A stretch of 64,000 nucleotides of DNA from Cyanidioschyzon merolae. Lineage: Eukaryota. The translations under genes and the position numbers were made by a program. The stretch lies in the NCBI GenBank assembly GCA_000091205.1, contig AP006502.2; one strand, written 5' to 3'. Below the pieces are notes generated by a model. It searched no databases, was not told the origin of the DNA, and saw nothing but the letters and a program-made list of their open reading frames with translations. Positions within the stretch are counted from its first letter, which is position 1, and every line of letters starts with the position of its first letter. Below are positions 14,985-51,860 of the stretch, one piece after another.

Positions 14985-15874
14985 CACGTATGTACCGGAA
15001 AAGCCGCCGCGTCACGTGCGACACGCGCGCTCCTCCGGATTTGATTCCGGTCTACAGAGCGTCTCCATTTTCAGATGACAAAACGTTTACATTGACCATG
15101 GATCCCAGAATAGCGAATGGATAGTGACTTTCGGGAAAGCGTCCATCATGCTACACTGTACCTTGTATTGCTGATATTTCCTCTTGGCTGTACTAGTCGT
15201 TTCGTACGTTGTATCTGGCACCGACTACCTGGCGTTGTGTGCTAGCAATAACGCGTATAGCTCTTGTGCGAATGTTATCCTGAGACGGAACAGCTTTGCT
15301 GTACCAGAGAGGGCATCGACTCGAGGTGCGTGTCACCGCGCACGGAATTGGGACTCATCATCATTCTGGGAGCCTGGAAGCTGCGCGTACAGACGTAATG
15401 CCTGCGACTGCACAGAGCGGTATTCTAGGAGACCGCGGCGACCAGAGCGACACCCAGACGCAGCATCCTGCTCCTAGTCCCAGAACGAATTGCGTTGCGG
15501 ACGAGCTGCGCAGGTCTCGCCACAGCACCTGCCACTGGAGGAAGCATGAAGCATGAGTCCGGCAGACTCGTTCGGATCGCGGGACCTTCCGCCTAGAAGG
15601 TAAAGTTTCGAAGATATGGAAACCTTCCCCCGTTCCAACGTTTACCTTTGAGTTGGAATGTAGTTTACATCGAGTTGCTATTTAATGGTTCGTTCCTGCC
15701 CTTTCTTACCTGGGAAAATGCTCGCTGCTCACGGGCGGGCACGACTGGGTATCTGGGCAATGCGTTCCGCGCATGGTATCCAGATCCATGGGCTCGCCCG
15801 TGCGGTAGTGATACGAATGCGTTTGTAGCCTCTGTTGACTTTCGCTCATTCGCGTATGCTATCGTTCGCGAACG

Positions 15875-18394: not shown

Positions 18395-19686
18395 ATGGCA
18401 TGCGACGAACTCATGTTGCAGGCACCGCTGCCTTGAGCTAGGAGTGGCACCCGTTGTGGCCGACATATCCCTCGTACACGGTATGAAACCGGCACTAGGT
18501 GAGGCTTGAACGTGATCCTCCCGAATCATGCCTTACACGCCAGCTGATTGTCTTTGCAGTATGGACATCGTTCCAAGGCGCAGGCTCGCTCGCTGATGCA
18601 TATCTTGGAGAAGGATGCCTCCCTTGCTGTTCATGGTTCGTTGAAAATCCCTGATTTAACTGCTAGTGCATGTGGCTGCTTCATTCGCTTTATCCGTGTA
18701 TGTACCCGAGAACTGGCCCGTGCTCGCATCGCGTACTCCGAGCTGGAAGCTTGCAAACGCCTGCACAGTTCGCGGGGAATGCATAATGGACTGTAAACTC
18801 GAATCGAAAGGACGCTGGGTTGTTTGTTCGATATCACTCCATCCGTTTGGAACTAAAATGGAACACGTCGACAAAGCCAACACGGGCGCACACACGAAAG
18901 CTGGGGTCTCGTCCCAGTGACGTCGACAATAGCCTGTGTACGGGCTTTTTGCGACTAATTGCTTTTCCTGACTATAATCTCCGGTTTCGAAAACGAGCGT
19001 TCTTCTGTGTACTCCAGCTCAGCTGTTGACAGTCAAACATCGTTCATGGTAGCGTATATAGCCCGATGTTGCTATTTCCGTGAGTTATCGACGCATATCA
19101 TGTACAGGCGCAAGCTGCGACCTCTGTTTCGCCTGAAATTTTCATCTTCTTTGTATGCAGCCTCGGTGGGCGCTTCGCAGCGTTGATGCTTGGCTGTATT
19201 CAGGAGTTTCCATGTGACCATAATGTATCCTACTCCGATGGCGGCTCAGTGGCGCACGAACGCTTGCTTTATCACTCCATCCATGCCGTTGACGGATACA
19301 GAGGACTCTCCCCGGTGCTTTCTGCGGCTTCTGTTCCTGGCGCTGGGCCAAACGATCAGCGGCTTCCGCTGGGCGATCGTCTCGGTGAGTAGGCTGTTCG
19401 TTGCACACCTGCAAGCGCACGATGTTGCATTCGATACCGCACCATCCGCCTGTTTGCAAGCTGTTCGATTTCTGAGCGCGCTATCGAAAAAAGTGCCGCG
19501 GAGCTTCACAGGTATCGAAATACTTTGGTAATTCGTGGGTACGGAGTCCGCAGCTGCGGCCCGCTTGCGACGATGCGACCAATGCTGCTGGGATTCCCTT
19601 CTGTATCGCTCGCTCGTACGTCATTCTATTCACACTTTCGTTCTCTTCCGCTGACCTGAAGATAAAAGTCGCGCTTTGAGACGCAA

Positions 19687-21083
19687 AGCGAGTCTGCACT
19701 GCTCAACAGAGGGCGCTCTTCCTCGACATGTCATCGCGCGAGATGCATCGCGGTTCGGCATCATTATGTACTAGTCATCATCCGGATATGACTTGCGTCC
19801 ATTCGAGCCCGAAAGCATCGACATCAGCTTGGGTGTACAGTGCCAACGCTCGCTTTCGTTGCGGCATCTCTATCAACGTCGCGACGACCGTGAGCGTTTC
19901 CGTCGCCGCTCGCAAGTCGTTCGCCTCCGTCGACGCCCACGGGATCTGTGTCACCAGTCGCCACTCTGGGAGGCGAGTATGATGATTCCACACAAGCGTC
20001 CATGAAGCGCTTCATACAGCGCTCGGCGTGGATCCGCGGATTGTTTTCCTTTTCGAGGCCTGCTCTGATACTTTCTGGTACCTGCGCTGTACGTGTTCTT
20101 ATCGCCAATGCGCCGCTGCGACGCGTCGAGATGTTCTGGGAAGCTTGTGTCCAAAAACGTGATTTTGCGGTACCAAGACCGCATTGCGTCCTCTGTTCCG
20201 AATACCGGTTGTGCTGACGCTTGAAAGTCAGCTCGAAAGCTTTCAAAAGAAAAACTGACAGCTGGGCGCCCTGCCTCCTGAGCTCCTACGAACAAGCGCC
20301 TTCTGGGGTACGTCACAGCGAGGGAGCGTAAACAAGGCGTTGTCGAGAAACGCGCTACGCGATCCCCAGTGGTGCCCTGTGTCTCCGTTTTCGGAAGTCT
20401 CTCCCGCATGATGCCCGCTAGTAGAGAGGATTCGGCAATGGTTTCAGACTGCGGTGCCTGCTCCGACGTCTTTTCCTCGCTGTCGCGCCGCGTCTGCTCC
20501 GTGGAAGGAGCCCGCTCTCCTCTGACAGACGCTTTTTCTCATTTTCACTTCTACTTGGCGGCGCGGCATGGGTGTCATTGCTATACATCACAGCCGTTTT
20601 GATCATCGTTACTCAGAAGCATCCCTCGGACAGTGAGTCCGAGACGTGCCTGTTCTATCTGTGCCTGTATCCATCTGCAACGCCTCATGCACACGCTCGT
20701 CACCACCTGCTGCTGCAAGCACGCCCGTGGTCCCAGGCGCGCCTTTCCGCTGCACCTTCTCGCCCGCTCGCACGAACCGAGAAGCAATATAGTAGCCCAG
20801 GGATGCCGAAGGTAGAGCGAGGCGTGCCGAAGAACGGTTTGTTCATGGACGGCGCCAGGGATATGCACGACTCGTCTACCGATCCCGGAGCGTAGCATGG
20901 GCGCAGGACAACACAGAAGCCATCTCCGACTGGACCGAACACAGGAAAACACGCTGACCCAAAGAGCAGCCTGATGAAAATCCCAGCTGGGGACTCCCTG
21001 ATCGCTCCTGCATCATGGCAGGCGACCTTCTCCAAGTGCAGGACAGGAGCATGCTGGATGGAAGAGCCAGAAAGCGCTGCGGC
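19687..21083 (+). repeat. left copy of a ~1.4 kb direct repeat; its partner is at 31248..32643
   Basis: Six-frame ORFs inside this interval recur with a constant offset of +11560/+11561 bp and near-identical translations. Examples are 19728..19982 versus 31177..31542, 20369..20602 versus 31930..32163, and 20572..20895 versus 32133..32456. The boundaries were read from the sequence: identity starts at AAGCGAGTCTGCACTGCTC and ends at GAAAGCGCTGCGGC. Confidence 0.85.
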
Positions 21084-23913: not shown

Positions 23914-24553
23914 CAAGGGTGGGCCTCCAACCCGGGGCGCTCGTTGACAGCTTCCACAAGGCGAACACGAATCGAGCGCCCCTGCGCTGCAAAGAGCGCC
24001 CAGGCTTTCCCGATAGCGACCCAAGGCACTCCCGAGTCCAACGTTTTGCGTGGTGCTTGCCAGGAGCCAGACTCGCGTCTGAGACGCAGCAACCGTTGCG
24101 CTGGGATCAGTGCGCGCCTACGAGCCTCGGCTATCGATAAAAACACGCCAACTCCGGAGCGTCCTGCAGGCTCGAGGGTACTCCACAACTCTTGAAGCTC
24201 TAACTTGCGTAAACTTTCTAACGTGTACTGAAGTACACACGAAACTTATCCACCTGACAAAGCCAAGCTGCTAGTACGCTTGCGTACGACGCAATTCCGA
24301 TGTGGACACAGGTGCTACGGCACGTCGCTACCACTCGTTTCGTTCTCGAGATCCCGGCACACAAACTGCGCTTGAGGCCGCAGTATTGGCTACCAAACGC
24401 CACCGCTGCAACTGCGGCTACGCAATCAGCGCTGTTAATACTGTCTCTCTCTCTCTGGGTGTGTTTATACGGTATCGTCAAAGTCGCCTTTCACAGGTGT
24501 TCTTCTCTCAGGCTGGAAGCGAAGCGTTTGACTGTCATGCTGCGACAGCGTTC

Positions 24554-25040
24554 GGAGGAAACTTGGGCACTTGCTTGAGGTCCTTCGAAAAGCCGAATAT
24601 ATTGGTGCTCGCGAAACCGTTGAAGTGAGCGTCCGGAGGAAACTTGGGCACTTGCTTGAGGTCCCTTGCAAAGCCGGATATATTGGTGCTCGCGAAACCG
24701 TTGAAGTGAGCGTCCGGAGGAAACTTGGGCACTTGCTTGAGGTCCTTCGCAAAGCCGAATATATTGGTGCTTGTGAAATCGTTGATGTGAGCGTCCGGAG
24801 GAAACTTGGGCACTTGCTTGAGGTCCCTTGCAAAGTCGGATATATTGGTGCTCGCGAAATCGTCGATGTGAGCGCCCGGAGGAAACTTGGGCACTTGCTT
24901 GAGGTCCCTGGCAAAGTCAGATATATTGGTGCTCGCGAAATCGTTGATGTGAGCGTCCGGAGGAAACTTGGGCACTTGCTTGAGGTCCCTGGCAAACCCG
25001 GATATATTGGTGCTTGTGAAATCGTTGATATGATCCAGGG
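24554..25040. repeat. 81-bp minisatellite, about 6 tandem copies with point variants
   Basis: The unit ggaggaaacttgggcacttgcttgaggtcc... recurs at 24554, 24635, 24716, 24797, 24878 and 24959. All three frames on both strands stay open across the array and give 27-aa peptide repeats. Confidence 0.85.
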
Positions 25041-26758
25041 TTTCGAGACTGCGCCATCGTCATCGGCATTCAAGCGAGGATTTATAGTGTCATATACTGG
25101 AGCTTCAACTTCAGAAAGCCCCAAAGTATACTTTTGTTCGCAAGGGCAAAGCCGTTTTCCTTGACATACCCACACCTTTTGATATGCGTGTCGTTCTCTG
25201 CATCGCGTATTCGCCAAGTCATATGTCTAGCGCCTGCAACTCCCATCCATGCATATCCAGGCTACTTTGAAAGTGAATCTTGGACATTTCCGTGCCGTTG
25301 GACACTGCTGCAGGACGTTGGTTTGTTTCGGAGGTACAGTTTGTGGCGCTTGCCTTGGACGGATTCTTCGGAATGTGAACGATGAATTGATGGATTCGGT
25401 AGATGCGCTTGTACGTACCGTTCGTGGTCGCTGGGCTCTTCAGACGGGCATCAGGGACCGAAGCCTGTTGACGTTTTGGCGCTCCGGCAGGGAGCAAAAC
25501 GCCTCGGAATGAGTTCCAGTGCCACGTGGCTCACTGGAAACATGGATCCTGTCAGACGACGTCATCTTTACCGTAGATTCATGGATGGGCATTACCCTGG
25601 AGAAGCATCCAGCAAGCCTCATTGCTGGACAATTGATACCGGATCACCGATGAGCGACATGCGCTCACGAGTACCGTTGACGCAGCGCAAACGAACGATC
25701 TCGTCATTGCGGAATTCTGCAATGATGCCAGCGATAAAGGCCTGGGGGCTCTGTCACCACGATACATTCATCGGAAGCGCATGCCGTCCAGTGTTTTCCA
25801 TGCTTCTATCTTCTGATCAGGGAAAAGACTCTTTTTGCGCCAGCGTTTGCAACTTGCGCGGCTAAACGTTGGCAACGAACTGATCAAGGGCGTCTGGCTT
25901 AGGCCCAGCAACCCTTCACGGTTTCTAGAGCACCTGAAGGCTCGGCACACGCTCATGAGCGTACCGAGCGATATATACATTCAAGAGCATCATCCGATAG
26001 AATCCTCGATCAACGTAAAAGATGCTCACTGCGCGAACCGAATTTCCTGTTGCATGGACATGCGTCGTACCTGTGGGCGAGGTTACCACTTGCCAGCGAT
26101 TGTCCCGCATTCAAGGCGGCACTTGACCGTGCTGCCACGTCCCAGGCAGCGCTCACAGCAGACTCGACACCCAGACGTTCGCATGAACTGACGAATACCT
26201 CGAGAGGAAACGAGGGGTGACGGTGCTGGTGGCGCCGACGGCGATGGCAGCTGCGGCATCTAGAGGCTGGTGAGACTTCAAGCTACGTCGCGACACGTCG
26301 GACGCGTTTCCACATACCAATAAACGTCGTGCTATCCGGGCTCGCTGGCTCGCGTCAATGATCCTAAACCCCTCAAACAGGGAACGCTGCACTGCTTTTG
26401 CCAACGACACACGCTTCCATTCATGTGACACAATCGACAAGTCGCTCTCGTGTCCGAGGTCCTGGTAGACAACACCTCACGGGATGCCCTACTGCTTTTC
26501 TTCCGATAACATAACCTTTACAATGACTACGAATCCCGGTTTGACACATGGATATGCCCTGCTGATCCGCAGCGCTCTCGAGATGGAGCGCAGCGGAACG
26601 CGTCGCGATGCCGTCGATTCGAACGCGATGCCGCTGGTGACCGTACAAGCCTTGGGTGTATCGCTGAGCTGCATTCCTGGTGGTGAGCGCGTCCTCCAGC
26701 AAGCTTGGGACCTGGTTTGCGAATAGCGTCCGAGTGACGCTGCTTCTCTCGCTTCAAG

Positions 26759-31247: not shown

Positions 31248-32643
31248 GAAGCGAGTCTGCACTGCTCGACAGAGGGCGCTCTTCCTCGACATGTCATCGC
31301 GCGAGATGCATCGCGCTTCGCCATCATGTACTAGTCATCATCCGGATATGACTTGCGTCCATTCGAGCCCGAAAGCATCGCCATCAGCTTGGGTGTACAG
31401 TGCCAACGCTCGCTTTCGTTCCGGCATCTCTATCAACGTCGCGACGACCGTGAGCGTTTCCGTCGCCGCTCGCAAGTCGTTCGCCTCCGTCGACGCCCAC
31501 GGGATCTGTGTCACCAGTCGCCACTCTGGGAGGCGAGTATGATGATTCCACACAAGCGTCCATGAAGCGCTTCATACAGCGCTCGGCATGGATCCGCGGA
31601 TTGTTTTCCTTTTCGAGGCCTGCTCTGATACTTTCTGGTACCTGCGCTGTACGTGTTCTTATCGCCAATGCGCCGCTGCGACGCGTCGAGATGTTCTGGG
31701 AAGCTTGTGTCCAAAAAACGTGATTTTGCGGTACCAAGACCGCATTGCGTCCTCTGTCCCGAATACCGGTTGTGCTGACGCTTGAAAGTCAGCTCGAAAG
31801 CTTTCAAAAGAAAAACCGACAGCTGGGCGCCCTGCCTCCTGAACTCCTACGAACAAGCGCCTTCTGGGGTACGTCACAGCGAGGGAGCGTACGCAAGGCG
31901 TTGTCGAGAAACACGCTACGCGATCCCCAGTGGTGCCCTGTGTCTCCGTTTTCGGAAGTCTCTCCCGCATGATGCCCGCTAGTAGAGAGGATTTGGCAAT
32001 GGTTTCAGACTGCGGTGCCTGCTTCGACGTCTTTTCCTCGCTGTCGCGCCGCGTCTGCTCCGTGGAAGGAGCCCGCTCTCCTCTGACAGACGCTTTTTCT
32101 CATTTTCACTTCTACTTGGCGGCGCGGCATGCGTGTCATTGCTATACATCACAGCCGTTTTGATCATCGTTACTCAGAAGCATCCCTCGGACAGTGAGTC
32201 CGAGACGTGCCTGTTCTATCTGTGCCTGTATCCATCTGCAACGCCTCATGCACACGCTCGTCACCACCTGCTGCTGCAAGCACGCCCGTGGTCCCAGGCG
32301 CGCCTTTCCGCTGCACCCTCTCGCCCGCTCGCACGAACCGAGAAGCAATATAGTAGCCCAGGGATGCCGAAGGTAGAGCGAGGCGTGCCGAAGAACGGTT
32401 TGTTCGTGGACGGCGCCAGGGATACGCACGACTCGTCTACCGATCCCGGAGCGTAGCATGGGCGCAGGACAACACAGAAGCCATCTCCAACTGGACCGAA
32501 CACAGGAAAACACGCTGACCCAAAGAGCAGCCTGATGAAAATCCCAGCTGGGGACTCCCTGATCGCTCCTGCGTCATGGCAGGTGACCTTCTCCAAGTGC
32601 AGGACAGGAGCATGCTGGATGGAAGAGCCAGAAAGCGCTGCGG
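31248..32643 (+). repeat. right copy of the ~1.4 kb direct repeat; partner of 19687..21083
   Basis: Same evidence as the left copy. Amino-acid substitutions and one small indel in the shared ORFs imply roughly 97% nucleotide identity. The right copy ends ~300 bp upstream of the ATG of the AK-NADK gene. Confidence 0.85.
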
Positions 32644-35574: not shown

Positions 35575-38004
35575 GCAGTGCCGATTCTGAGACCTGGAAT
35601 GCGCAGACGGGACTCATTCACGCGAGCCCAGCTGAGGTCTGTGTGCTTGCCTCGCACACTATCCACGCAAATGTCCAGAAGAGTGGCATTCAGACGAGTT
35701 GTGGAGTCCGCGCTTCACCTTGCACCCAGTTCATGGAGGCATCAGGCAGTGTAGATGGGGCGCAGATACCGCCAAGGCTCGGCGCGCCCGGGCGCTAAAC
35801 ACTCTACAGACCCCGTATGTCCAGCGTTCAGCAGAGCAATTGCGACCTCGGCGGTGAGTTCGACTCCGCCTAGGTACCAGAAGCGCGTCGAGTCAGCGGC
35901 TAGAGGTCGCGTTGAACGTGCTTCCGTGGTCGTCGTCGTCGTCGACATCTACTGTTGCTGCTGGTGGACCCGGCGCTTTGTTGCGACGACGCATTGCCGG
36001 CCGGTATCGTCGGAGCTTGCGGTGCAGATGCCGCTCCGCAGAGGCCGCGTCTGCAGGCCAGCGTCTGTCGATAAGCGCAGGTGCAGTCGCGTCCAGGCAC
36101 TGGAGTCGTGCTGCCAGTCGCGTCGTAGTCGCACGGGGTCTGTTTCGTGGGGAGTGTTCGTGGCCGTTGCGCGGCTGCGGATGCAACCACAGGGTCCAGT
36201 TTGGTAACGCGCACCGCATCCGCACAATGCAACTGTCCAAACAGACACCACAGATACGTATCTCTCGCGTGGGAGCACTGCGACGCGCGTCTGCAGCCGC
36301 AGGCAGGCTATCGACTATGCAAGTCGTGCGGTTACGAGCGCGTAGGTCAAGCACATCGCCTCGGTCGCATGTTCTGGATGGGGGGCTCGTTACTGCCACT
36401 GGAGCAGTCCGGATCAGCGCGTATCTCCATTCACTTGACTTTCCATGTTTAGAGTTGCGTCGGGTTACTGGTTTCAGGCAAGAGATGCCGACTTTCATAA
36501 ACACGAACACATATCACATGACCATTCTCGAGCGCAACAATCCGCTCACAACCTCTTGAGCGCGGAAAGAGCGTGCCACAGCATTCCCAAAAGAAGCTCT
36601 CAAACCGGAACCAACCTGTCCAGTAGAGTAACGAGATTAGACTCCAGGTGTACGGAAAGAGAAGCAAGGTAAAGATCAGGAACGCGTAGTCGTAGCGAGC
36701 TGGATGGATGTCGTTGAAGACCTTCACGACGCGGGGAACTGCGCCGCTCCACGCTGCCGGTGCCGGGGCTGTCGTAATCGTTGCCGTAGAGGCCCCGACC
36801 GACGCATCGACTGCGTCCGTGGTCGGCGTGCCGTCGGCTGCAGGGCCCACAGGCACTTGCGTCAGGCGATGCTCGCGAACCGTTTGCCAGTAACCGTAGC
36901 GATGCCGCTTCTGCCAGTCCGCAACGTACGGCGGCAGAAGCGCACCCTCGGCACCCGCGAGCGTCGAGCGCTGACTCGCAGCGTCGGGTCCCAGGCACGG
37001 ACCCGCTGGCCAAGCTGATGCACCCTCCCCGGGACCCAGTTCTTCACCGCAAACGAAGCAGCGCGAGTAGTACTGCGACAGCGGTAGAAACACGAACGAT
37101 TCTGGCTCCAAAGAGTCCGCGTCCGCGGCCGGCGTCAGAGGCGAGGCCACCAGACGCGGCTGGTGCAGCGCCGCGGCACTGTTCCCCGCGAATCCTCAGC
37201 CGTCTAGTGGCTCAAGCGGCTGGGCTCCAGCCGAAAGACGCTGGACGCCCCGTCCAGACCTGCTGGTTTGACGCTGACCTCCTGTGCGTTGCGTCGACGC
37301 ACCCCCTCCGACGAACACATGCACGCGCTCGTTTGCATCAGAAGCTTTGGACGTTGCCCGATCACCTGGTCCAGCTACTTTCCCCTGATCACCGTTTATC
37401 ATGTGCGTTCGTCTCGGTTGGTGGCAAGTTCTAGTCTCTCTGCCGGTTCACAGCGGTCTCTGGCGTTCCAGACTCGCCCAGGATACCGCCTATGAATGCA
37501 GCGCGGACGTCCGGCAGCGCTCCCGGCGGTGGTATCCGTTGACGCAGCGTCGAGGGATGATGAGGCGGCGACGATCGACGCCACAAACCCGCAGAGGATC
37601 GCATGCTCCGTTGGCCTCGGGAGTCCTAGTAGCGGCATATTGCTCGAGCTGGAAGCTTCATATCGCAAACATTGCTATAGGCGCCACTGCTGTCGCTTTC
37701 GGCAGGCTCGGCACACGACAGGACGTAGGAAACGACCAGAATATCCGAGACGAATTATAGGTAATGGAACATGGAAGTAGGGGGTTGATGGATACTTTAC
37801 AGTGCACTGAAAAAAAAGCATAAAGAAAGAAGGAAGAAACGCGCATAATCGGAGAACGCTGGCGTAAGTAAACGCTCTGTCAATGAAAAAAATCGCAAAC
37901 ATAGCATGGTATGGTCTTTCAACTGGATTTTGGTTCATAACAGCTGAGTGGAATCGAATGCTTGTTAACAGTGCATTGCTGGAAGTCCTAATCACGGTGC
38001 AGTG

Positions 38005-39440
38005 TATACTCTGGATCCTAGTCGAATTGTTTGTAAAATGGATTCTTTATTGAATAGTGCACGGAGGACGGCATTCTACATTCAGGTCAGTCTTACGTCT
38101 ACCCTCAGATGGTTGACGAGCACTAAAAGAGAAAAGTACATGCGCTCCGCGTCAAAAACCGACAGTCTCAAAGAGTTCTTGCGTTCAATGATAGAAAATG
38201 ATTCGTTGATCATCGAACTGAAAGCAATAAGCGGCGAGTACAGCCACCGCCGGTATCTATCTTTCTAAACAGCTTGCTCCTTTAGCCCTGAATACACTGG
38301 GATACAGTGGGAAAAAGGTCCTAGTTCACGCACGGCCATCTTGCACGGAAATCCCAACGATTACAACGTTCCTGGAACTCAGCGACCGGTTTGAAACACA
38401 AGGACATCGGTTTGTTTTTTAAGACGGCGAGGCCTCATTCGGATGAAACGGTCGGAGCTTATATGCGTACTCGCCGAGCATGCATCCCGTTTTATATACA
38501 ATCGAACTCGAGGGGAATGAGGACATCATCTTCCGTTCAAGCCGCAGTGGACTCATTTGGCGGCTACAGTTTCGCTTATAGAGAAAGCGTATTCAACAGC
38601 ACCAACCACCTTGTCGAATCATGGAAGACTTGTTCGCTGACGCCTGGCGACGCTCTCCTAGTGATCAACTTGGTAGTTCACAATCCCCGCTGCGTCCCCG
38701 CTTTCGTGGATACTATTGAGGTAGAGCTGCTTTTCATTCCAGCGTACTCTTCGAGCTTAAATCGTATCGAAAGGAGTGTTTTCGCTCGTGACACGTAATG
38801 ATCACCTCAGAAGGCGAATCGCTGAAGCGCTTAGCACACATTGATACCGGGAGACATGTCGCCTTTCCCCTGCAAGTCCTTCTCCATCCGGAAGGTTCTC
38901 GCCTTAATGCATAAAGAAGTGAGTTCATTTGAATGAAAAATTCATGGGAACGGTATAGCCATGCAAGTCAAGGATCACGGGAGGCCGCTGTCGCCGGGTA
39001 CCTCGAAAAACGGAAAAATCCTAGGCTCGCCGACTATCGATCGAAAAAGGGTATCTGACGACGACGACAACGACGACAACGACGACAACGACAACGACCA
39101 AGAAGAAGAATAGAGGCGATAGACGAGAATAGACGTTCGCCCGACGTGACAATGCCGAGACTGAAACGACACAGAGGGCACGAGTTCCACCTATGCTCCC
39201 AGTGGTGCATTCCACCGGCGGCAATAAACACATAGAGCTCGTGGACCGGGACTTCAACGCTGCCATCAATATCAGACGACTTGTGGCGCTGAAGACGAGA
39301 CCCGCGGAGCTGACACGATCTAACTTTGCGGGGCAGCCTCTCAGGCTCGAAATGTGCTTGGATATACTGAAACTGATTGCAGGCGGCGAGGCGAAAAGGC
39401 TGGACGTCGTCTGCGACTAGGTTAACAAACTTACCCTCTA
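38005..39440 (+). mobile_element. composite non-autonomous element (copy X-D): Tc1/mariner-like terminus plus DDE-transposase remnant, joined to the 3' fragment of a TnpB/Fanzor-like gene
   Basis: The 5' end CAGTGTATACTCTGG is the inverted complement of the conserved 3' terminus of the TnpB-like copies. Frameshifted ORFs 38002..38268 and 38391..38798 retain ...LLFIPAYSSSLNRIERSV. This resembles the FLPPYSPDLNPIE third-acid-residue block of Tc1/mariner/IS630 DDE transposases. ORF 39193..39420 encodes ...HIELVDRDFNAAINIRR..., a TnpB RuvC-III motif. The whole arrangement is duplicated at 50476..51860. Confidence 0.6.
39057..39110. repeat. (GAC)n/(GACGACAAC)n microsatellite followed by (GAA)3, inserted inside the X-D element
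   Basis: The run gacgacgacaacgacgacaacgacgacaacgacaacgac is read from the sequence. It is absent from the paralogous copy Y-E. Confidence 0.8.
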
Positions 39441-39518
39441 TAGTTGTGAAATGTTTATCATTTTGCAGATTATAGTTAGGCGTATGTTCGCTGAACGCCA
39501 TTCTACAGACAAACGACG

Positions 39519-40480
39519 CCAGCAGTGTACAGTAGTGGCGAGAAGCCCGCCCTAGACGAAACGTCTCCAACTGACGTGCAGACGCCTCCCCGTCATTTTG
39601 GACCGGCCACCCAATACTGCCTCCAACTTTTTCTCATGTAGTTCGAGTTTGAGAAGTTGTCCAACAAAGTTCTCTCGTGTGAGTTCCGGAGGTCTCATCT
39701 CCAGCACCGCACATCTACTTATATTGATAGCGGCGTTAAAGTCTCGGTTCACGAACTCCACCCGTTTCTTGCCACTGATCGGACTAATTAATGCGAGTAG
39801 TCCACGAACGTTCGCCCTCCTTTCCATTTGCTCCTCCGTCAGCGGTCCGTACTTTGCTATTTCCTCAGGGCTCCTCTGGCGCTTCTCCATCTCGACCCTT
39901 TGAAGTGTGCACCCCAGTTCATGGTGTGTATACGATGTTCGGAACTCATCTATCGGGGTTGTAACGAACCGCCATGCGCACTCCTTGTACGTTCTTGTCG
40001 TTGGAGCTGGCATAGTCCCTTTTTGGGTCTTCCATCGCCCTGCTCCGCACGCTACTATCAGCCTCTGACTTTGATTCTCTTTGAGGGCACTCAACTGATT
40101 GAAAAAGTCCGCGAACGCCCGCTCCCTCTACCCGTATGGATTCATACGCAGACGAGCCAACCGAGGCTTCGTATACTCCTCCCAGAGCGCATCCCAATGC
40201 GCAACGCGAACATCCATGAATTTTCGAAAAGCTTCAAAGTCCGCTCCTCGGCTCGTGACCTCGCTCAAAGCTGCCAGGTGATCCTTCATTCCTGAATTCC
40301 AATTCTCGATTTTCTTCCTCGCATTCATTATACCGGATTCTCGATCGTATTTGGCTCTCGAGAACCTCAAAAGACGCATGTCTTTCCGACGCAAATTACC
40401 GTCAGTGCCATCTTCCGAACGCTCCGGGCCTGCACCTTAGAGATATTCGGCGCCAGTTTGCCTCAGCTGGGCATGCTCTG
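39519..40480 (-). mobile_element. TnpB/Fanzor-like element copy A, 5'-truncated; conserved 3' terminal region ending ...CGCCACTACTGTACACTGCTG
   Basis: ORFs 40128..40394 and 39552..40094 sit in the same frame, separated by a single TAG. Together they encode ...RESGIMNARKKIENW..YKECAWRFVTTPIDEFRTSYTHHELGC...VEFVNRDFNAAINI. This matches the C-terminal half of TnpB (the (V)xVxP..TSxxC zinc-finger region, then RuvC-III D-x-NAA-x-NI). Homology to copy B stops near 40470, just before the 3' end of the SET gene. Confidence 0.65.
39552..40394 (-). pseudogene. TnpB/Fanzor-like RuvC nuclease pseudogene (copy A): in-frame TAG and missing N-terminus
   Basis: I translated the junction by hand: ...RLRMNPYG, then TAG, then RERAFADFFNQLSALKENQSQRLIVACGAGRW... 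continue in one frame. The stop falls in the segment that aligns to TnpB RuvC-II (IVIEDLNVAGMLRNRRLARAI). Confidence 0.6.
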
Positions 40481-40498: not shown

Positions 40499-41917
40499 TC
40501 ACCGCTCCGCCGATACACCACTGTTCGTCGCATGCCCAGAGTGCTGAGGATGGGCATGCCCGAGCTGCTGCAGCGCACGCTCCAGAATACGCTTCTTTCC
40601 TATGCGAAAGCGCCGCGCCAGCTCCAATCGCTGGTTGCTCGGCTGCCATTGCTCATCCTCAGTGAGCGTCGTCGGCTTGCGCGCGAGCTCTTCGCGAATC
40701 AGTGCTATCAGACCAGTCGCCGAGAGGTGTTGGACCGACTCTGGATTGCGCACGCGGCCTGTCGCATCGAAAACGATCGTCGTCTCTGAGGCATCGTCCC
40801 AGAGCTTGTACGTGTCGTGCGGGTTATCCTCTTCCACGAATCCGTACAAAGCCAAAAGTTCATCGTTGGTCAAAGTGCCGTACGATATGAAGACCTGATC
40901 GCCTGCATGCGTGTCTCGATTGCTTATGCTGAGCGAAAAAGCATCATAAAAGTACTCATAAGCGACCTTCGATTGGACGCGAGAAGAATGATTGAAGAGA
41001 TCAATGAAAGGTGCAATGACATACTTCTTCAACGGTGCACCCTGCATGGACTGATAAATGCGCGGGTACAGCGCGTCAAATACGAGCTGCGACAAGACCA
41101 CCACCAGAAAGACGTTCAGTGCTGCGAACGCGTCCATGAGATGAAAGTTCCAGCTCGCTAGGGAAAGTGCCCCAGCGAAACACGCCTGACGCCAGCGTTC
41201 ACCGAATGGCGTCGTCTCGGAGGGTCCGCTGAATGCGCGCGTGACAACGACGTTCAACGCCCACTGAAAGTCCTGTTCGCTGAATAAACCTCCTCGCACT
41301 TTCAAATCGATTCCGCCTCGTTCGAATGTCTGCCGCACGAACCGACCATAGAGATCCTTCCATTTTCGTTCCTGCTCGCTGATAGCCCGCAAAAGACAAT
41401 CATACTGGAGCTCCCGACGTTCTGCATCTGTCCAGTACAGAGGCCGCTCGTCAAATGTTGTCGGCAAGAGACGGAACCAGGGCGAAAGTGTGCAGTTAGA
41501 CGCCGATACTTTGGCAGGGCCTCGACGCTGGTTTGGCCGGATCTCCCAGCGCTTTAATTTGCGACGCAAGACAAGAGTCTCTAGCTTTCGAGCAGACTCA
41601 GGATCTGCTTTGTACCGCTCGAAAAGCAACAGAAGCGCGAGACGAGCGTACCAAGGCGCCTGCTTCCAGAACATGGGCGCGCAGACCTCTTCTGGCAGAG
41701 GACAACCTCGTCCGCTATCATCGGAGCGGGTCTGCAACGCCAGAAACCCCGGCACTCGAGCGAGAATCGAACCTGCAGGCAAGGCGGTTTCAGCTCTGAG
41801 GCCGCGTAGGTGCTCGCGGCCAAAGTGCGCAATGCTGAGTTCAGCGGTTTCAATGCCGGCGCCTTTTGCCCACTCCATAAAGCCGACCTCTATGCTATGA
41901 TCATTCAGCGTTGTCAT
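40499..41917 (-). CDS. SET-domain protein-lysine N-methyltransferase, SETD3/SETD6/Rubisco-LSMT-like
   Basis: The ORF is open up to 42634, but the SET-family N-terminus (MTTLNDHSIEVGFMEWAKGAGIE...GRGL-type start) begins at the ATG near 41917. The C-terminal part holds IAPFIDLFNHSSRVQSKVAYEY and VFISYGTLTNDELLALYGF, which are the SETD3/6 and LSMT hallmarks. The upstream 240 codons of open frame are most likely non-coding 5' region. Confidence 0.8.
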   Translation of the reverse strand: MTTLNDHSIEVGFMEWAKGAGIETAELSIAHFGREHLRGLRAETALPAGSILARVPGFLALQTRSDDSGRGCPLPEEVCAPMFWKQAPWYARLALLLLFERYKADPESARKLETLVLRRKLKRWEIRPNQRRGPAKVSASNCTLSPWFRLLPTTFDERPLYWTDAERRELQYDCLLRAISEQERKWKDLYGRFVRQTFERGGIDLKVRGGLFSEQDFQWALNVVVTRAFSGPSETTPFGERWRQACFAGALSLASWNFHLMDAFAALNVFLVVVLSQLVFDALYPRIYQSMQGAPLKKYVIAPFIDLFNHSSRVQSKVAYEYFYDAFSLSISNRDTHAGDQVFISYGTLTNDELLALYGFVEEDNPHDTYKLWDDASETTIVFDATGRVRNPESVQHLSATGLIALIREELARKPTTLTEDEQWQPSNQRLELARRFRIGKKRILERALQQLGHAHPQHSGHATNSGVSAER

Positions 41918-42609
41918 ATCTAGCTGTGGCGAATGCCTCGTGGCTTCCCTGGTCCATGTATTCTGCTGGGGTTCCTCGCCCGCTGTACTCCTTTGGTGCT
42001 CGCGCGTGTTGCAGTGTTCGCCGCTTTTTTCTTCGCCCAGCTCTCCCTCTCGAGATAGCGTCGCACGCACGCTGGACCGGAAACGAGTCATCAACCGATT
42101 ACACGGAGAGAGGGCCGGTCCGCTGCACACGGACAACGCCACCGGGCACCGTTGCTGCCACACGGTCGACGGCAGCAGCCACGCAACGGTCATCTGGTCT
42201 GGTTCAGCTCTACCAGAAAACAAAAGCATAGTCCCAGTGAGTGACAACTGATCCGACGCAGCCTCACTCGAAGACGCAATCACACGCGCACCTCGCAAAA
42301 AGCAGAACCGTTCAGTGGACGACAATTTCGGAACGTCGCAGGTCACTGCGAAGCTATGATGCGCTGTGCCGCTGCGCTCCAGAGTTGCAAACACTCGCCC
42401 GTTCTTTCGGGGCGCAGCGTAGCCCGGTGCTCCAGTGTGCTTCCAGAGGTCCTTCTTGTACGTCTGAAACGTTTCTACGAAACCACTGAACAGCTTTCTA
42501 TCGTCCAACACGAAACTCAGGAGCTTCAGTCCTTGAGCGAACGAGCATGAGCTTCGTGCTCGCGAGCAGTTCGAGATAGGACGTTTTGGATCAAACGAGG
42601 ATCCGTCGC

Positions 42610-43829
42610 TGAGTTCGCGCACCCCTGGAAGCAAACGCCTTTCGAAAGTCGAACAACAGCGGTGTACAGTAGTGGCGGCAAACGCGCCCTAGACAAGAAG
42701 TCTCCAACCGAGATGCAGACGCCTCCCAGGTTTTTTTCGACCGGCCACCCACTACTGCTTCCAATCTTGTCTCATATAGCTCGACTTTGAGAGGTTGTCC
42801 AACAAAGTCCTCTCTTGTCCACTCTGGAGGTCTCGTCTCCAGCACCGCATATTTCCTTATATTGATTGCGGCGTTATAGTCACGATTCACAAACTCCATA
42901 CGTTTCGTGCCATTGATTGTAATTAATAATGCGAGTAGCCCTCGCACTTTCTTCCTTCTTTGCATTTGCTCTTCCGTCAGCGGTCCGTATTTTGCTATAT
43001 CCTCAGGGCTCCTCTGGCACTTTTCCATCTCCACTCTCTGAAGTGTACAACCCAGCTCATAGTGTATATACGATGTTCGGAACTCATCTACAGGTATGGT
43101 AACAAAACGCCTTGCGCACTCTTTGTATGTTCTTGTCGTTGGAGCTGGCGTAGCTCCTTTTTGGGTCTTCCAGCGCACCGCCCCATACGCTACTACGAGC
43201 CTTTGATTTCATTCTCCTTCAGGGCACTCAACCCATTGAAAAAGTTGGCAAACGCCCGCTACCTCCCACCGTATAGATTCATACGCAAACGAGCCCACCG
43301 GGGCTTGGTATACTCCTCCCATAGCGCCTCCCAGTGAGCAACACGAACTTCTATGAATTTCCGAAAAGCTTTAAAGTCCGCTCCTCGGCTCGTCACCTCG
43401 CTCAAAGCTTCCAGGTGCTCTTTCATTCCTGAGTTCCAAGTCTCGATTTTCTTCCTCGCATTCATAATACCGGATTCTCGATAGTATCTTGCTCTCGAGA
43501 GCCTCAAAAGACGCATGTCTTTCTGACGTAAGTTACCATCAGTCCCATCTTCCGCACACTTTGGTACAGCGATGGTTATGATGTTCGTATTCCCAGGGTC
43601 CGCGCCAACGACAAAGTCGTTATCCTGCACCTCCTGCATCGCAAGATCCGCACCCTTCTCATCTACATCCTTCGCCGAGCCGTCTACAAGGTTGTACTTT
43701 TCCACTTCCTGCGTCGCAGGATCCGCATCCTTATCATCTACATCCTTCGCCGAGCCGTCTACAAGGTCGTCATCCTCCACTTCCTTCGTCGCAGGATCCG
43801 CATCCTTCTCATCTATATTCTTCGCCACG
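42610..43829 (-). mobile_element. TnpB/Fanzor-like element copy B, the most complete copy, frameshifted; it forms the left arm of a head-to-head palindrome with copy C
   Basis: ORF 43259..43828 encodes acidic 25-aa repeats, then FVVGADPGNTNIITIAVPK (a RuvC-I GxDxG motif) and RLLRLSRARYYRESGIMNARKKIETWNSG. ORF 42591..43178 encodes ...RWKTQKG..YKECARRFVTIPVDEFRTSYIHYELGC...MEFVNRDYNAAINI. A 1-nt deletion relative to copy A sits between them, giving tcgtagtag. The conserved 3' tail cgccactactgtacaccgctg lies at ~42656. Confidence 0.65.
43610..43829. repeat. 75-bp tandem repeat, ~2.7 copies, encoding the acidic 25-aa repeats at the N-terminus of TnpB-like copy B
   Basis: The unit atccttcgccgagccgtctacaaggtNgtNNtNNtccacttcctNcgtcgcaggatccgcatccttNtcatctac is read directly from the sequence. 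The protein repeat is VDGSAKDVDDKDADPATQEVEKYNL. Confidence 0.75.
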
Positions 43830-44880
43830 GGCGAAGCCGAGGACGGACCAGGAGGCGAGCCCGACGGCGCTGGAGGCGCAGAAGAACGCGTTTGCCGTTG
43901 GCGTGGACTCTGCGAACACGAACATCGTTACCATTGCAGCACCCAAGCGTGAGGAAGATGGCTCTGTCGGCAACTTATGTCAGAAAGACATAAGACTGTT
44001 GAAGCTCTCATGAGCGAGATATTACCGAGAATCCGGTATAATGAATGCGACGAAGAAAAGTGAGACATCGAATTCAGGGGTTAAGTGAATTTGGAAGCGA
44101 TCAGCCGGGTGACGAGCCGCGGAGCCGATATTTAAGCGTTTCCAGAGGCTATGAGCACTCACGCATCTGAAGTCGAGAGCCTTTGGAAAGAATGCACAAA
44201 GTTCAGGTGGGCTCGTCTGCGTATGAACCTGTACTGTAGGAAGCAGCGAGCATACGCCAGCTTTTTCATTCAATTGAGCGCCCTCAAGGAGGACAGGAGC
44301 CAAAGGCTCGTAGTAGCATACGGGGCAGGTCGATGGATCACCCAAAAAGGGTGTACACCAGCCTCCAACGACAAGAACGTACAAGGAGTGCGCACACCGT
44401 TATGTCAAAACACCTTTAGATGAGTTTCGAACATCTTCTACACACCACGAGCTGTGTTGTACACTTCAGAGGGTCGCGATGGAGAAAAGCCAGCGGCTCG
44501 CTGACGGAAATGCAAATGGCAAGGAGGGCGAAACTTCGAGGACTACTCGCTTTGGTTAATAAAACTAATGATAGGAAGAAACGAATAGAGTTCCTGGACT
44601 GAGACTTTAACGCCGCCATCAGTATAAGGAAATGTGCAGTACTGGAAAGAAGACCCCCGGAGTTGGCGAGAGCCAACTTTGCGAGGCAACCTCCCAAAAT
44701 GGAGTGATACGAGAAGAAGTTGAAACCAGTAGTAGGTGGCCAGTTGCGGAACGCCGGCACAGGCGTCTGCACATCATTGGGTAGACAATCGGTCTACGAC
44801 GGACGGTGTGAGAAACGCCACTCCTGTACACTGGCTTTCCAGCGTTTCTCTTTTGCAAGGCGTTTGGTGGTGTTTCCAGA
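43830..44880 (+). mobile_element. TnpB/Fanzor-like element copy C, heavily degenerate, inverted relative to copy B and abutting it head-to-head
   Basis: Conceptual plus-strand translation from 43831 gives AKPRTDQEASPTALEAQKNAFAVGVDSANTNIVTIAAPKREEDGSVGNLCQKDIRLLKLS*ARYYRESGIMNATKK..., which parallels copy B. ORF 44151..44423 contains LSALKEDRSQRLVVAYGAGRWITQKG. Downstream lies DFNAAISIRKCAVLERRPPELARANF. The 3' tail ...aaacgccactcctgtacactgg lies at ~44815-44838. Confidence 0.6.
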
Positions 44881-50475: not shown

Positions 50476-51860
50476 CAATGTGCTGTATAGATCGTAGACG
50501 AATAGAATGTTAGATATATATTCTTTACTGAACAGTGCAAGGAGGACTGCATTCCTCGTTCAGGTACGGTTCACCACAGTATTCAGATGGACGAGGAAAA
50601 CTGAAATAAAGAAGCAAGTACATGCGATCCACACCGAAACCAGATATACTCATAGCGTGCTTGCGTTCACTGGTAGAAAAACGACCCGTTGATTACTTTA
50701 GGGAAGGGGAAAGCGACGATAATACCCATTACCTCTATCTATTTTTCTCGCCAGCTAATTCGTGTGATCCTGAATGCACTGGCATACAGTCGCGATAAAG
50801 TCCTGGTTCATGCACAGCCGTCTTGTATCGAATTCGCAACGACAGCGTTCCCGGAACGTCCCGATCGGTACGAAGCACAGAGACGTAGCTCTGTCTTTTT
50901 CAGACGATGCGACTTTCTTTGGCCGAAATGGTCGGGGCGTACATGGGTAGTCGCGGAGATGGAGCCAGCTGTATGTATGATCGAACTTGATGAGAGCGAG
51001 GACATCATCAACTGTTTCAGCTGCAGTGGATTCATTTGGCGGCCGCAGTTTCGCTCAGAGAGAAGGCTCGTCGAACAGCACACACTGTACCGAATCATTG
51101 AAGAAATTTCCCCTGACGTCTGACGACGTCGTCCGGTTGTACGGCTTGGTATTTCACCATTCCCCTTGCGTTCGAATGTTTGCTGATTCGATCGGGGAAT
51201 AGAGCTGCTTTTCATTCCTCGATATAATCCGTGGTTGAGCCCCATAGAAAGTGTTTTTTCTATTATGAGACGTTTTTAATGCTCAACGGGGCGAGTCGCT
51301 GCAGCGTTCAGCACACATTGGTACCTGGCCACATTGTGTCCTTCGTCTGCAAGCCCTTCTCGCTCCGGTTAGCTCCTCATCTAACGGCATAAAGAAGCGC
51401 GCCATTTGAAGAAATAAGAAATCCAAGGGATGAGCTGCGGTGTACACTTCAGAACATCGAGATAGAGAGAAGGCAGCGGAGCGCATCGCGCGATAGAAAA
51501 GTACGGAGAGCTGACAGAGCAGTCAATGGTACTGAGTACTCGTGTTCTGGCAATCCTTGCATGGGTGAGTTCAACAAGCGGCATTATATGCGAGGAGTTC
51601 GTGAAACGAGACTCCAACGTCACCTTCAGTATCCGACGATATATAGTGCTGAAGAAGAGAACCGAGGAGCTGACGCGATACAGGTTTATGGGGCAGTCTC
51701 TCAGACTTGAGGTGTGCAGGAGGAAGCTGACGTCAATAGGTGGTGGTCGGTCGAAAAAGGCTTCACCTCTGCGAAAATTGCTTCGCCCATAACTTGCGTT
51801 GGAAAAGCAAAATCGCACACATGAAGACTTTGTGATTTGAACATGCTGTTGTTCGGGAAA
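50476..51860 (+). mobile_element. composite element copy Y-E, paralogous to 38005..39440: Tc1/mariner-like transposase remnant joined to a TnpB-like 3' fragment
   Basis: ORFs 50507..50692, 50689..51123 and 50987..51202 parallel copy X (LLNSARRTAF..., ...AAVDSFGG.SFA.RE...). In copy Y the transposase C-terminus has decayed to ...ADSIGE-LLFIPRYNPWLSPIES. ORF 51526..51792 encodes EEFVKRDSNVTFSIRRYIVLKKRTEELTRYRFMGQSLRLEV, a decayed RuvC-III region. Nucleotide homology with X-D can be followed across the junction, as in gaRtcgctgMagcgYtYagcacacattgRtacc. Confidence 0.55.

Follow-up and report, generated by a model that had tools for sequence, protein, structure and literature searches.

The right end of the Fanzor1 transposon CMe-1A in Cyanidioschyzon merolae as a candidate guide-RNA scaffold

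A 64,000-nucleotide stretch of chromosome 20 of Cyanidioschyzon merolae 10D (contig AP006502.2; hereafter, the window) contains three copies of a sequence block, each at the end of a decayed open reading frame (ORF) that resembles TnpB. The block forms the right end (RE) of a previously catalogued Fanzor1 transposon family, CMe-1A, whose members are ~3.2 kb long, have a single ORF, lack terminal inverted repeats (TIRs) and number ~150 copies. We propose that this 3ʹ tail is most likely a guide-RNA scaffold (omega RNA or fRNA) as well as the end of the element, a reading that our analysis makes plausible and that is unproven. We infer that the stretch is transcribed, bound by Fanzor and used as a guide scaffold.

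The repeated block and its element

CMe-1A is the sole Fanzor1 family described in C. merolae, and its copies are ~80% identical to a consensus of 3169 bp (Bao & Jurka 2013, Mob DNA 4:12, PMC3627910). That consensus has both ends determined and one ORF of 734 aa (PMC3627910; Repbase). It is described as lacking TIRs, its 5ʹ 635 bp are identical to a separate repeat, TE-N2_CMe, and it was left unclassified by the authors who defined Helitron2 (PMC3627910). Our majority consensus of 58 copies has a single, uninterrupted ORF of 784 aa, which starts MEKQVDDPGGPVSPAARKK... / MEKQVDDPGGPVSPAARKKQK..., ends GRRLHVSWRRFV* and encodes Fanzor; there is no transposase. The protein fits the published CMe-1 protein, the 5ʹ start of our consensus (CGATGACAAAACGTTTACATTGACC...) agrees with that of the published DNA consensus, and the published 3ʹ end (...GAAAGGCG / ...GGGAGGCGTCTGCACGTCAGTTGGAGACGTTTTGTCTAGGGCGCGTTTGCCGCCACTACTGTACACCGCTGGCGGCAGCGTTTTTCTTTTGAAAGGCG) has the same pattern as the 3ʹ end observed here. 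Since the 5ʹ start, the 3ʹ end and the protein all fit, the block is the right end of the catalogued transposon.

The protein of the CMe-1 family is, by its predicted fold, a Fanzor1. An AlphaFold model of one family protein (P0121), built on 59 diverse sequences, has a pLDDT of 82.7 and a pTM of 0.80, and its top seven matches in the PDB are all Fanzor1 (Foldseek, E 5.6e-16 to 1.5e-13). The best match is SpuFz (E=5.6e-16, TM 0.68-0.72), PpFz and GtFz come next, and Cas12 and Fanzor2 matches follow these at E 6e-3 or worse. An earlier model from a shallow alignment had a pLDDT of 47.6, yet it matched Fanzor structures only. The residues D484 (GADPG), E656 (VDEFRTS) and D725 (NRDFNAA) are nearly invariant in 59 relatives; the copies in the window lack the full RuvC D-E-D set because they are frameshifted and truncated. 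More distant relatives comprise 147 proteins at 35-55% identity, one of them from Chlamydomonas euryale, and several pass the Pfam threshold for PF07282 (Cas12f1-like TNB domain). Searches of Pfam, NCBIfam and PDB sequences with the ORF fragments of the window and with full-length relatives returned nothing useful; only the predicted structure, the distant relatives and published work gave the identity. The TnpB-like ORF of the original prediction is borne out by the Fanzor1 fold (Foldseek E 6e-16), by PF07282 in relatives and by the published CMe-1 family. Between the recognition (REC) lobe and RuvC-I lies a 75-nt (25-aa) acidic tandem repeat (..DEDEKEADPATQEVEDNDLVV..), at 43600-43826 on the minus strand of the window; it corresponds to residues 380-469 of P0121, varies in copy number among copies and is disordered in the model (pLDDT <50).

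The repeated block reads GGAGGCGTCTGCACGTCAGTTGGAGAC...TCTAGGGCG...CGCCACT(A/C)CTGTACAC(T/C)G. Its occurrence in three copies, A, B and C, as originally predicted, is confirmed, with 0 expected in shuffled sequence. The core motif spans 39523-39589 (minus strand) in copy A, 42660-42726 (minus) in copy B and 44761-44833 (plus) in copy C. The first ~40 nt of the block are codons for the last 12 residues (...GRRLHVSWRRFV*), and the next ~60 nt are non-coding, with a hairpin at the end. The tail had been described as overlapping the stop codon; the block does straddle the stop of the TnpB/Fanzor-like ORF, but its first ~40 nt are coding. Its location also needs revision: the block of copy A lies on the minus strand at ~39492-39592, and the range first proposed, 39440-39560, covers its 3ʹ half plus ~50 nt of unrelated flank. 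Nor does the block end at CACTG, since conservation goes ~35 nt further, through the hairpin.

Copy A is a 5ʹ-truncated CMe-1A Fanzor1. Its RE block (39492-39592, minus strand; nhmmer E=1.6e-39) runs from GGAGGCGTCTGCA to GGCGTTCA, and within it GGAGGCGTCTGCACGTCAGTTGGAGAC occupies 39563-39589 on the minus strand. The stop codon, TAG at 39552-39554 (minus), ends a remnant ORF at 39552-40094; it falls between GGAGGCGTCTGCACGTCAGTTGGAGAC and the non-coding island CGCCACTACTGTACACTG, in the 3ʹ arm of an AGACG/CGTCT pairing. The island (39523-39540, minus) is complementary to the upstream coding sequence GCAGTAGT-A-GGTGGC. The terminal hairpin region at 39494-39522 (minus) is a decayed form of GGCGTCGTTCGA-CTT-TCGAACGGCGTT, and the element ends at ~39492-39496. 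Upstream of the block, 39593-40434 (minus) holds a frameshifted remnant of the RuvC half of Fanzor1 with the motifs DEFRTS and NRDFNAAINI. The RE block of copy B lies at 42632-42729 (minus; nhmmer E=3e-41), preceded by a Fanzor1 remnant at 42730-43830 (minus) in which 25-aa acidic repeats lead to RuvC-I (GADPGNTN) and then RuvC-III, with one frameshift/stop. Copy C has a heavily decayed Fanzor1 remnant at 43869-44757 (plus), head to head with copy B, and an RE block at 44758-44866 (plus; nhmmer E=5e-33) that reads CAGGCGTCTGCAC ... CGCCACTCCTGTACACTG ... GCAAGGCGTTTG. By three-frame translation, all three copies are 5ʹ-truncated pseudogenes that lack the 5ʹ half of the gene and carry frameshifts and stops. 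Any function sits with intact family members elsewhere in the genome.

The truncated 5ʹ ends of copies B (minus) and C (plus) are ~40 nt apart (43830 and 43869), and the two copies together (42632-44866) form a 2.2-kb imperfect palindrome that is 73-80% complementary where it can be aligned. Between copies A and B lies an ORF of 711 aa (40499-42634, minus) with weak matches to a SET domain and to the substrate-binding domain of Rubisco large-subunit methyltransferase; its stop-proximal end adjoins the right end of copy B.

A translation stitched from copy B has 281 close relatives, nearly all of them unnamed proteins from Joint Genome Institute metagenomes. A scan of metagenome contigs yielded 80 loci, and our locus set (L001-L081, 680 kb) extends up to 4 kb upstream of the ORFs. 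The block recurs after at least 70 related ORFs in hot-spring metagenomes; with 91 nhmmer matches, essentially all loci have the tail directly after the ORF. At the other end of the element, the window contains a solo TE-N2_CMe module, the ~600 nt of the CMe-1A 5ʹ end, at 15078-15651 (plus), with no Fanzor ORF after it; in other loci the module stands in either orientation relative to Fanzor. Across L001-L081, the Fanzor core meets at least five different recurrent groups of upstream sequence at one junction, which precedes ATCGCGCTCGGTGAGCGCACCTGGGAGATC and lies ~850 nt upstream of the ATG (for example, at ~3150 in L021). With 5ʹ ends this modular, no single left end or target-adjacent motif could be fixed.

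Conservation and predicted fold of the tail

Why might the end of a Fanzor element specify a guide RNA? Fanzor fRNAs overlap the 3ʹ end of the ORF and the right end of the transposon, and in Chlamydomonas a Helitron2-borne Fanzor gives rise to small RNAs from its conserved 3ʹ untranslated region (UTR) (PMC10530073). The original prediction placed the omega or fRNA at the 3ʹ end of the ORF, running into the right transposon end, in agreement with that work (PMC10530073). Since a Fanzor guide RNA overlaps both the ORF end and the RE, the tail is a legitimate candidate for its scaffold, and this position is the strongest argument for a guide-RNA role. Structure on the sense strand, conserved islands, a terminal hairpin and a variable flank also fit the candidacy; covariation, by contrast, is not significant.

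In 71 distinct copies, conservation passes CTGTACACYG by ~35 nt and continues via the hairpin to GAA(A/C)GGCG TT(T/C)G, after which it drops to background; among 41 independent insertions, the flank has become random by the fourteenth nucleotide after GGCG. Over the 71 copies, divergence from the consensus averages 0.09-0.13 in blocks of upstream coding sequence, 0.146 in the last ten codons and 0.21 in the non-coding part of the tail, against 0.60 in the flank. In the window, the tails are 77% (A-B), 66% (A-C) and 65% (B-C) identical, and the 300 nt upstream of them 83%, 69% and 69%. The tail had been thought to be conserved while the coding sequence upstream diverged; both comparisons contradict this, the tail being the more divergent of the two.

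What distinguishes the tail is the pattern of its divergence. Two islands, AGGCGTCTGCA within the last codons and CGCCACTACTGTACAC in the non-coding part, diverge by only 0.00-0.11 and are among the best conserved sequences of the 3ʹ region, whereas the loop stretch between them diverges by 0.4-0.6. Divided by the divergence at first and second codon positions, third-position divergence gives a ratio of 2-3 for the RuvC region; this ratio declines to 1.35 over the final 60 codons and to 0.91 over the final 12. Over the same 60 codons, divergence at four-fold degenerate sites is slightly lower (0.16 vs 0.22, p=0.047). The two islands are very conserved without a codon signature. Because all positions of one copy share one age, position-specific divergence reflects constraint on the copying lineages, and here the constraint is at the level of nucleotides rather than protein.

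The tail could instead be the 3ʹ UTR of the Fanzor mRNA, with a polyadenylation or termination signal, or could be conserved through shared descent only. It does directly follow the stop codon, its overall divergence of 0.21 exceeds that of the coding sequence, and its covariation is not significant. We nonetheless consider this explanation highly unlikely: islands and hairpin loop differ widely in divergence at the same age, one island falls within the ORF, conservation has a sharp limit at the end of the element, and three subfamilies keep the hairpin with different sequences.

For the guide-RNA scaffold, we propose the following arrangement. In a sense transcript, the tail and ~50 nt of upstream coding sequence would form the 3ʹ part of the omega/fRNA scaffold. 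A closing stem of 14 bp (P1) would pair GCAGTAGT-A-GGTGGC with GTCGCC-ACTACTGT, an internal hairpin (P2) would pair GAGGCGTCT with AGACGTTTT, and a guide-adjacent hairpin (P3) would occupy the extreme end of the element. Host sequence immediately past the element, which is variable, would be the guide. The same DNA would also have to hold the signal that defines the right boundary of the transposon.

Several observations are consistent with these helices. In P1, the non-coding island complements coding sequence that lies 85 nt upstream; 12 of 13 positions are complementary, a score equalled in 6 of 5000 shuffles. At the positions of P2 that face G, U and C alternate (GU:32, GC:26) although the amino acid changes. 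The terminal hairpin is present in most copies and has three sequence versions at the same site: GGCGTCGTTCGA-CTT-TCGAACGGCGTT in the sf1 group, AACGTTTTTC-TTTT-GAAAGACGTT in the sf2 group, with a U-A / U-G / C-G series at one pair, and a version built on CCGGCGAG...CTCGCCGG in loci L055 and L003. The sense strand of the 136-nt consensus folds at -51.4 kcal/mol (z=-1.71; 12 of 200 shuffles are as good), compared to -34.4 kcal/mol (z=-0.22) for the antisense strand, and across 71 copies the sense fold is the more stable by 5.9 kcal/mol. The three window copies have folding z-scores of -1.56, -0.84 and -1.69.

Other results weigh against a guide-RNA role. The original prediction had named conserved structure with covariation as its own test, and here the outcome is weak: RNAalifold gives no consensus structure (-1 kcal/mol over a 358-column alignment), and no helix is significant or convincingly above shuffles, the percentages of paired cells, observed and shuffled, being 81.8/80.3, 94.7/94.4, 92.9/92.7, 87.7/86.6 and 84.3/83.8. 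These are column shuffles, which related sequences can beat regardless. Double changes in the proposed helices are few, and the z-scores for folding, at -0.8 to -1.7, are modest. Because the copies share descent and are partly the same loci in different assemblies, counts overstate their independence. The fold is tentative, since P1 competes for bases with a GGCG/CGCC hairpin and the island has a second possible partner upstream. A search of Rfam gave no match. Finally, a terminal hairpin in a transposon that lacks TIRs could act in transposition only, as a DNA signal.

Two alternative pairings were also considered. Between the small local hairpin AGACG/CGTCT and the longer GAGGCGTCT/AGACGTTTT pairing, covariation favours neither. 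Pairing of the island with TGTGCGGTGCTGG, ~190 nt upstream, is well conserved and competes with the nearer GCAGTAGT-A-GGTGGC; it has no support from covariation, and we rejected it.

Inverted repeats, hairpins and flanks at the element end

In the original prediction, the same segment doubled as a Tc1-like terminal repeat. There are reasons for suspecting a TIR of the Tc1/mariner type: on the opposite strand the motif reads CAGTG..., like Tc1 ends, the window has Tc1-like DDE_3 remnants adjoining a second, diverged Fanzor, the closest of the distant relatives of the protein directly follow Tc1/mariner transposases, and the facing copies B and C mimic inverted ends. Nonetheless, this explanation is extremely improbable and, for a present-day TIR, refuted. 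With up to two mismatches, the 16-nt core is never inverted in 680 kb of sequence (81 loci and the window); all 77 of its occurrences are in tails, in the orientation of the ORF. Searches of the 680 kb with nhmmer likewise found no inverted copy of the full tail or of the non-coding tail (unfiltered and with E up to 10 for the latter). The motif is not terminal, CTGTACACTG (CTGTACACYG) sitting ~35-39 nt inside the element end, and, at 34-39 of the 41 independent insertions, the first letters of the 3ʹ flank are TT, as TT(T/C)G and not as a TA duplication. CMe-1A has one ORF and no transposase, and it was published as TIR-less. The inverted appearance in the window arises because copies B and C lie head to head.

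We also considered a relic of a Tc1 right TIR. The true Tc1/mariner ends of the relatives, ...TTGGCGGAGTATA followed by TA, are unrelated to the tail, and the CAGTG at 38000 is mostly flank, the homology of the two Tc1-like copies beginning at TGTATA; for these two reasons we rejected the idea. Since the closest relatives follow Tc1/mariner transposases, a Tc1/mariner ancestry of the Fanzor gene is possible; the likeness to CACTG would still not amount to a TIR.

The Tc1-like remnants belong to a second element, present in two decayed copies at 38000-39420 (plus) and 50500-51800 (plus), in which a Tc1/mariner-like DDE_3 remnant is followed by a diverged Fanzor C-terminus. The DDE_3 remnant lies at 38391-38798 (Pfam E=4e-4) and the Fanzor C-termini at 39193-39420 and 51526-51792; an imperfect (GAC/AAC)n run, gacgacgacaacgacgacaacgacgacaacgacaacgacc, is at 39056-39100, after the Tc1-like remnant and before the fragment of diverged Fanzor. 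The tail of this element is unrelated to that of CMe-1A, and its DDE_3 remnant is not part of CMe-1A. The distant relatives P0131 and P0134 have the same order of transposase and Fanzor, with ends ...TTGGCGGAGTATA before TA.

A stronger challenge to a guide-RNA role is that the tail is only a DNA-level signal for the right end, with no role as RNA; for example, a subterminal hairpin of the Helitron-like or HUH type that ends single-strand transfer. CMe-1A lacks TIRs and has a hairpin of 9-14 bp at 4-13 nt from its 3ʹ end, the exact ends being uncertain by several nt. Its 5ʹ flank is T-rich, its 3ʹ flank begins TT, its copies are often truncated at the 5ʹ end and intact at the 3ʹ end (all three window copies included), and several loci have head-to-tail tandem copies. 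These traits resemble those of Helitron2-borne Fanzor elements in Chlamydomonas (PMC3627910), and three versions of the hairpin fit a need for shape rather than sequence, so that P3 is well explained. However, a DNA signal leaves unexplained the islands upstream of the hairpin, one of them inside the ORF without a codon signature, and the complementarity between the island and coding sequence 85 nt upstream. In RNA, an alternation of T and C opposite G is neutral; in DNA it is not. The end is not of the CTRR type, and no asymmetric terminal inverted repeat (ATIR) was seen in a search for repeats of at least 14-16 nt, with short ATIRs and RepHel/Y1 genes not looked for. Moreover, a Helitron2-borne Fanzor of Chlamydomonas makes fRNA from the same place, and hence an RNA role is compatible with such an end (PMC10530073). 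We regard a purely DNA-level role as possible but doubtful. A DNA role would leave an RNA role possible in any case, because the two coexist in bacterial IS200/IS605 elements and in Chlamydomonas.

The 5ʹ flank of CMe-1A and TE-N2_CMe copies is a run of T, TTTTT[C], at 20 left ends from L001-L081 and the window. Past TT(T/C)G, the 3ʹ flank of CMe-1A copies is G/T-rich and A-poor to 13 nt beyond GGCG (41 right ends). Head-to-tail tandems 3.7-4.9 kb apart occur at L027/L028, L069/L071, L080 and L051/L052. Flanks, tandems and 5ʹ truncation together look like Helitron-style insertion. A direct repeat (GCGTTTTTCTTTTGA) shared by the left-end flank and an arm of the right-end hairpin was considered and rejected, because with 20 left ends only the T-rich run remained. 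Solo TE-N2_CMe right ends, compared for a shared transposition signal, are too ragged to decide.

The two roles may be combined in one structure. CMe-1A could be an unclassified, TIR-less transposon whose movement, as in Helitron or IS200/IS605, proceeds through a single strand and depends on a hairpin; its terminal hairpin would double as the right-end signal in DNA and the guide-adjacent stem in RNA. We consider this specific scenario unlikely. If true, it would be the closest eukaryotic parallel to the arrangement of TnpA and TnpB in bacterial IS200/IS605, and its source, a thermo-acidophilic alga, might give a heat-tolerant Fanzor editor.

Elsewhere in the window, four long ORFs match proteins of C. 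merolae 10D exactly (MYB-related protein, CMT140C, NAD kinase). An 81-nt tandem repeat of about eight units, 68-93% identical to one another, is at 24466-25113. A direct duplication of ~770 nt (19686-20452 and 31249-32013; 98-99% identity) has its copies 11.56 kb apart, and positions 6-91 hold a third, more distant copy of an 86-nt portion of it.

Significance and relation to known systems

What would a guide-RNA scaffold in this tail mean? It would complete a Fanzor system with the half that is missing, in a red alga, C. merolae, that is genetically tractable and whose growth conditions are 42-45 C and low pH. With the intact 784-aa consensus and the RNA boundary (...GGCGTTTG followed by the guide), programmable cleavage could be assayed directly. 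CMe-1A has had no classification since 2013, and a hairpin-ended, TIR-less Fanzor element would bear on mobility without a linked transposase. Otherwise, the block would be ordinary: the 3ʹ end of a known repeat family in three dead copies.

With regard to Tc1/mariner elements that carry Fanzor1 (PUl-1 and PGv-1; P0131 and P0134), the Fanzor ORF is in each case on the 3ʹ side, next to the right end, and the protein is related to that of CMe-1A at 30-38% identity. Those elements have a DDE_3 transposase, TIRs of 24-33 bp and TA duplications, whereas CMe-1A has none of these. The Helitron2-borne elements CRe-1/2/3 of Chlamydomonas reinhardtii, like CMe-1A, are non-autonomous, have a single gene and no classical TIRs, and combine a 3ʹ subterminal hairpin with a T-rich insertion context and many 5ʹ-truncated copies. 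They differ in that a CTRR-type end, an ATIR or a 5ʹ hairpin could not be shown for CMe-1A (searched for repeats of at least 14-16 nt), which also has no known RepHel partner.

Among Fanzor1 systems with an omega/fRNA (SpuFz1, GtFz1, CrFNuc; PDB 8GKH, 9CER), the likeness lies in the predicted protein fold (TM up to 0.72, Foldseek E 6e-16 to 1.5e-13) and in a candidate RNA that covers the 3ʹ end of the ORF plus the right end and borders on variable sequence. The non-coding part is ~60 nt here, whereas published fRNAs reach up to 200 nt past the ORF (PMC10530073). The end of CMe-1A also differs in having no TIR or right inverted repeat, and its protein in having a C4 zinc finger that looks degenerate and 12-15% identity to solved Fanzors.

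The closest comparison is with CMe-1A as published. The organism is the same, the protein starts MEKQVDDPGG... here and MEKEVEDPGG... there, the 5ʹ start (CGATGACAAAACGTTTACATTGACC...) and the 3ʹ end (...GTCTAGGGCGCGTTTGCCGCCACTACTGTACACCGCTGGCGGCAGCGTTTTTCTTTTGAAAGGCG) are the same, TIRs are absent from both, and the 5ʹ ~600 nt also exist alone as TE-N2_CMe. Our 784-aa consensus differs from the 734-aa protein by extra 25-aa repeats; the window copies differ in nothing essential, being decayed and truncated members. We found no report of an omega RNA for CMe-1A, or of a C. merolae Fanzor RNA, in the literature searched, and the 2013 paper, which predates the discovery of RNA guidance, gives the tail no role. 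Hence, the element and the principle are already known, and the predicted scaffold-guide junction of CMe-1A is now defined well enough for testing.

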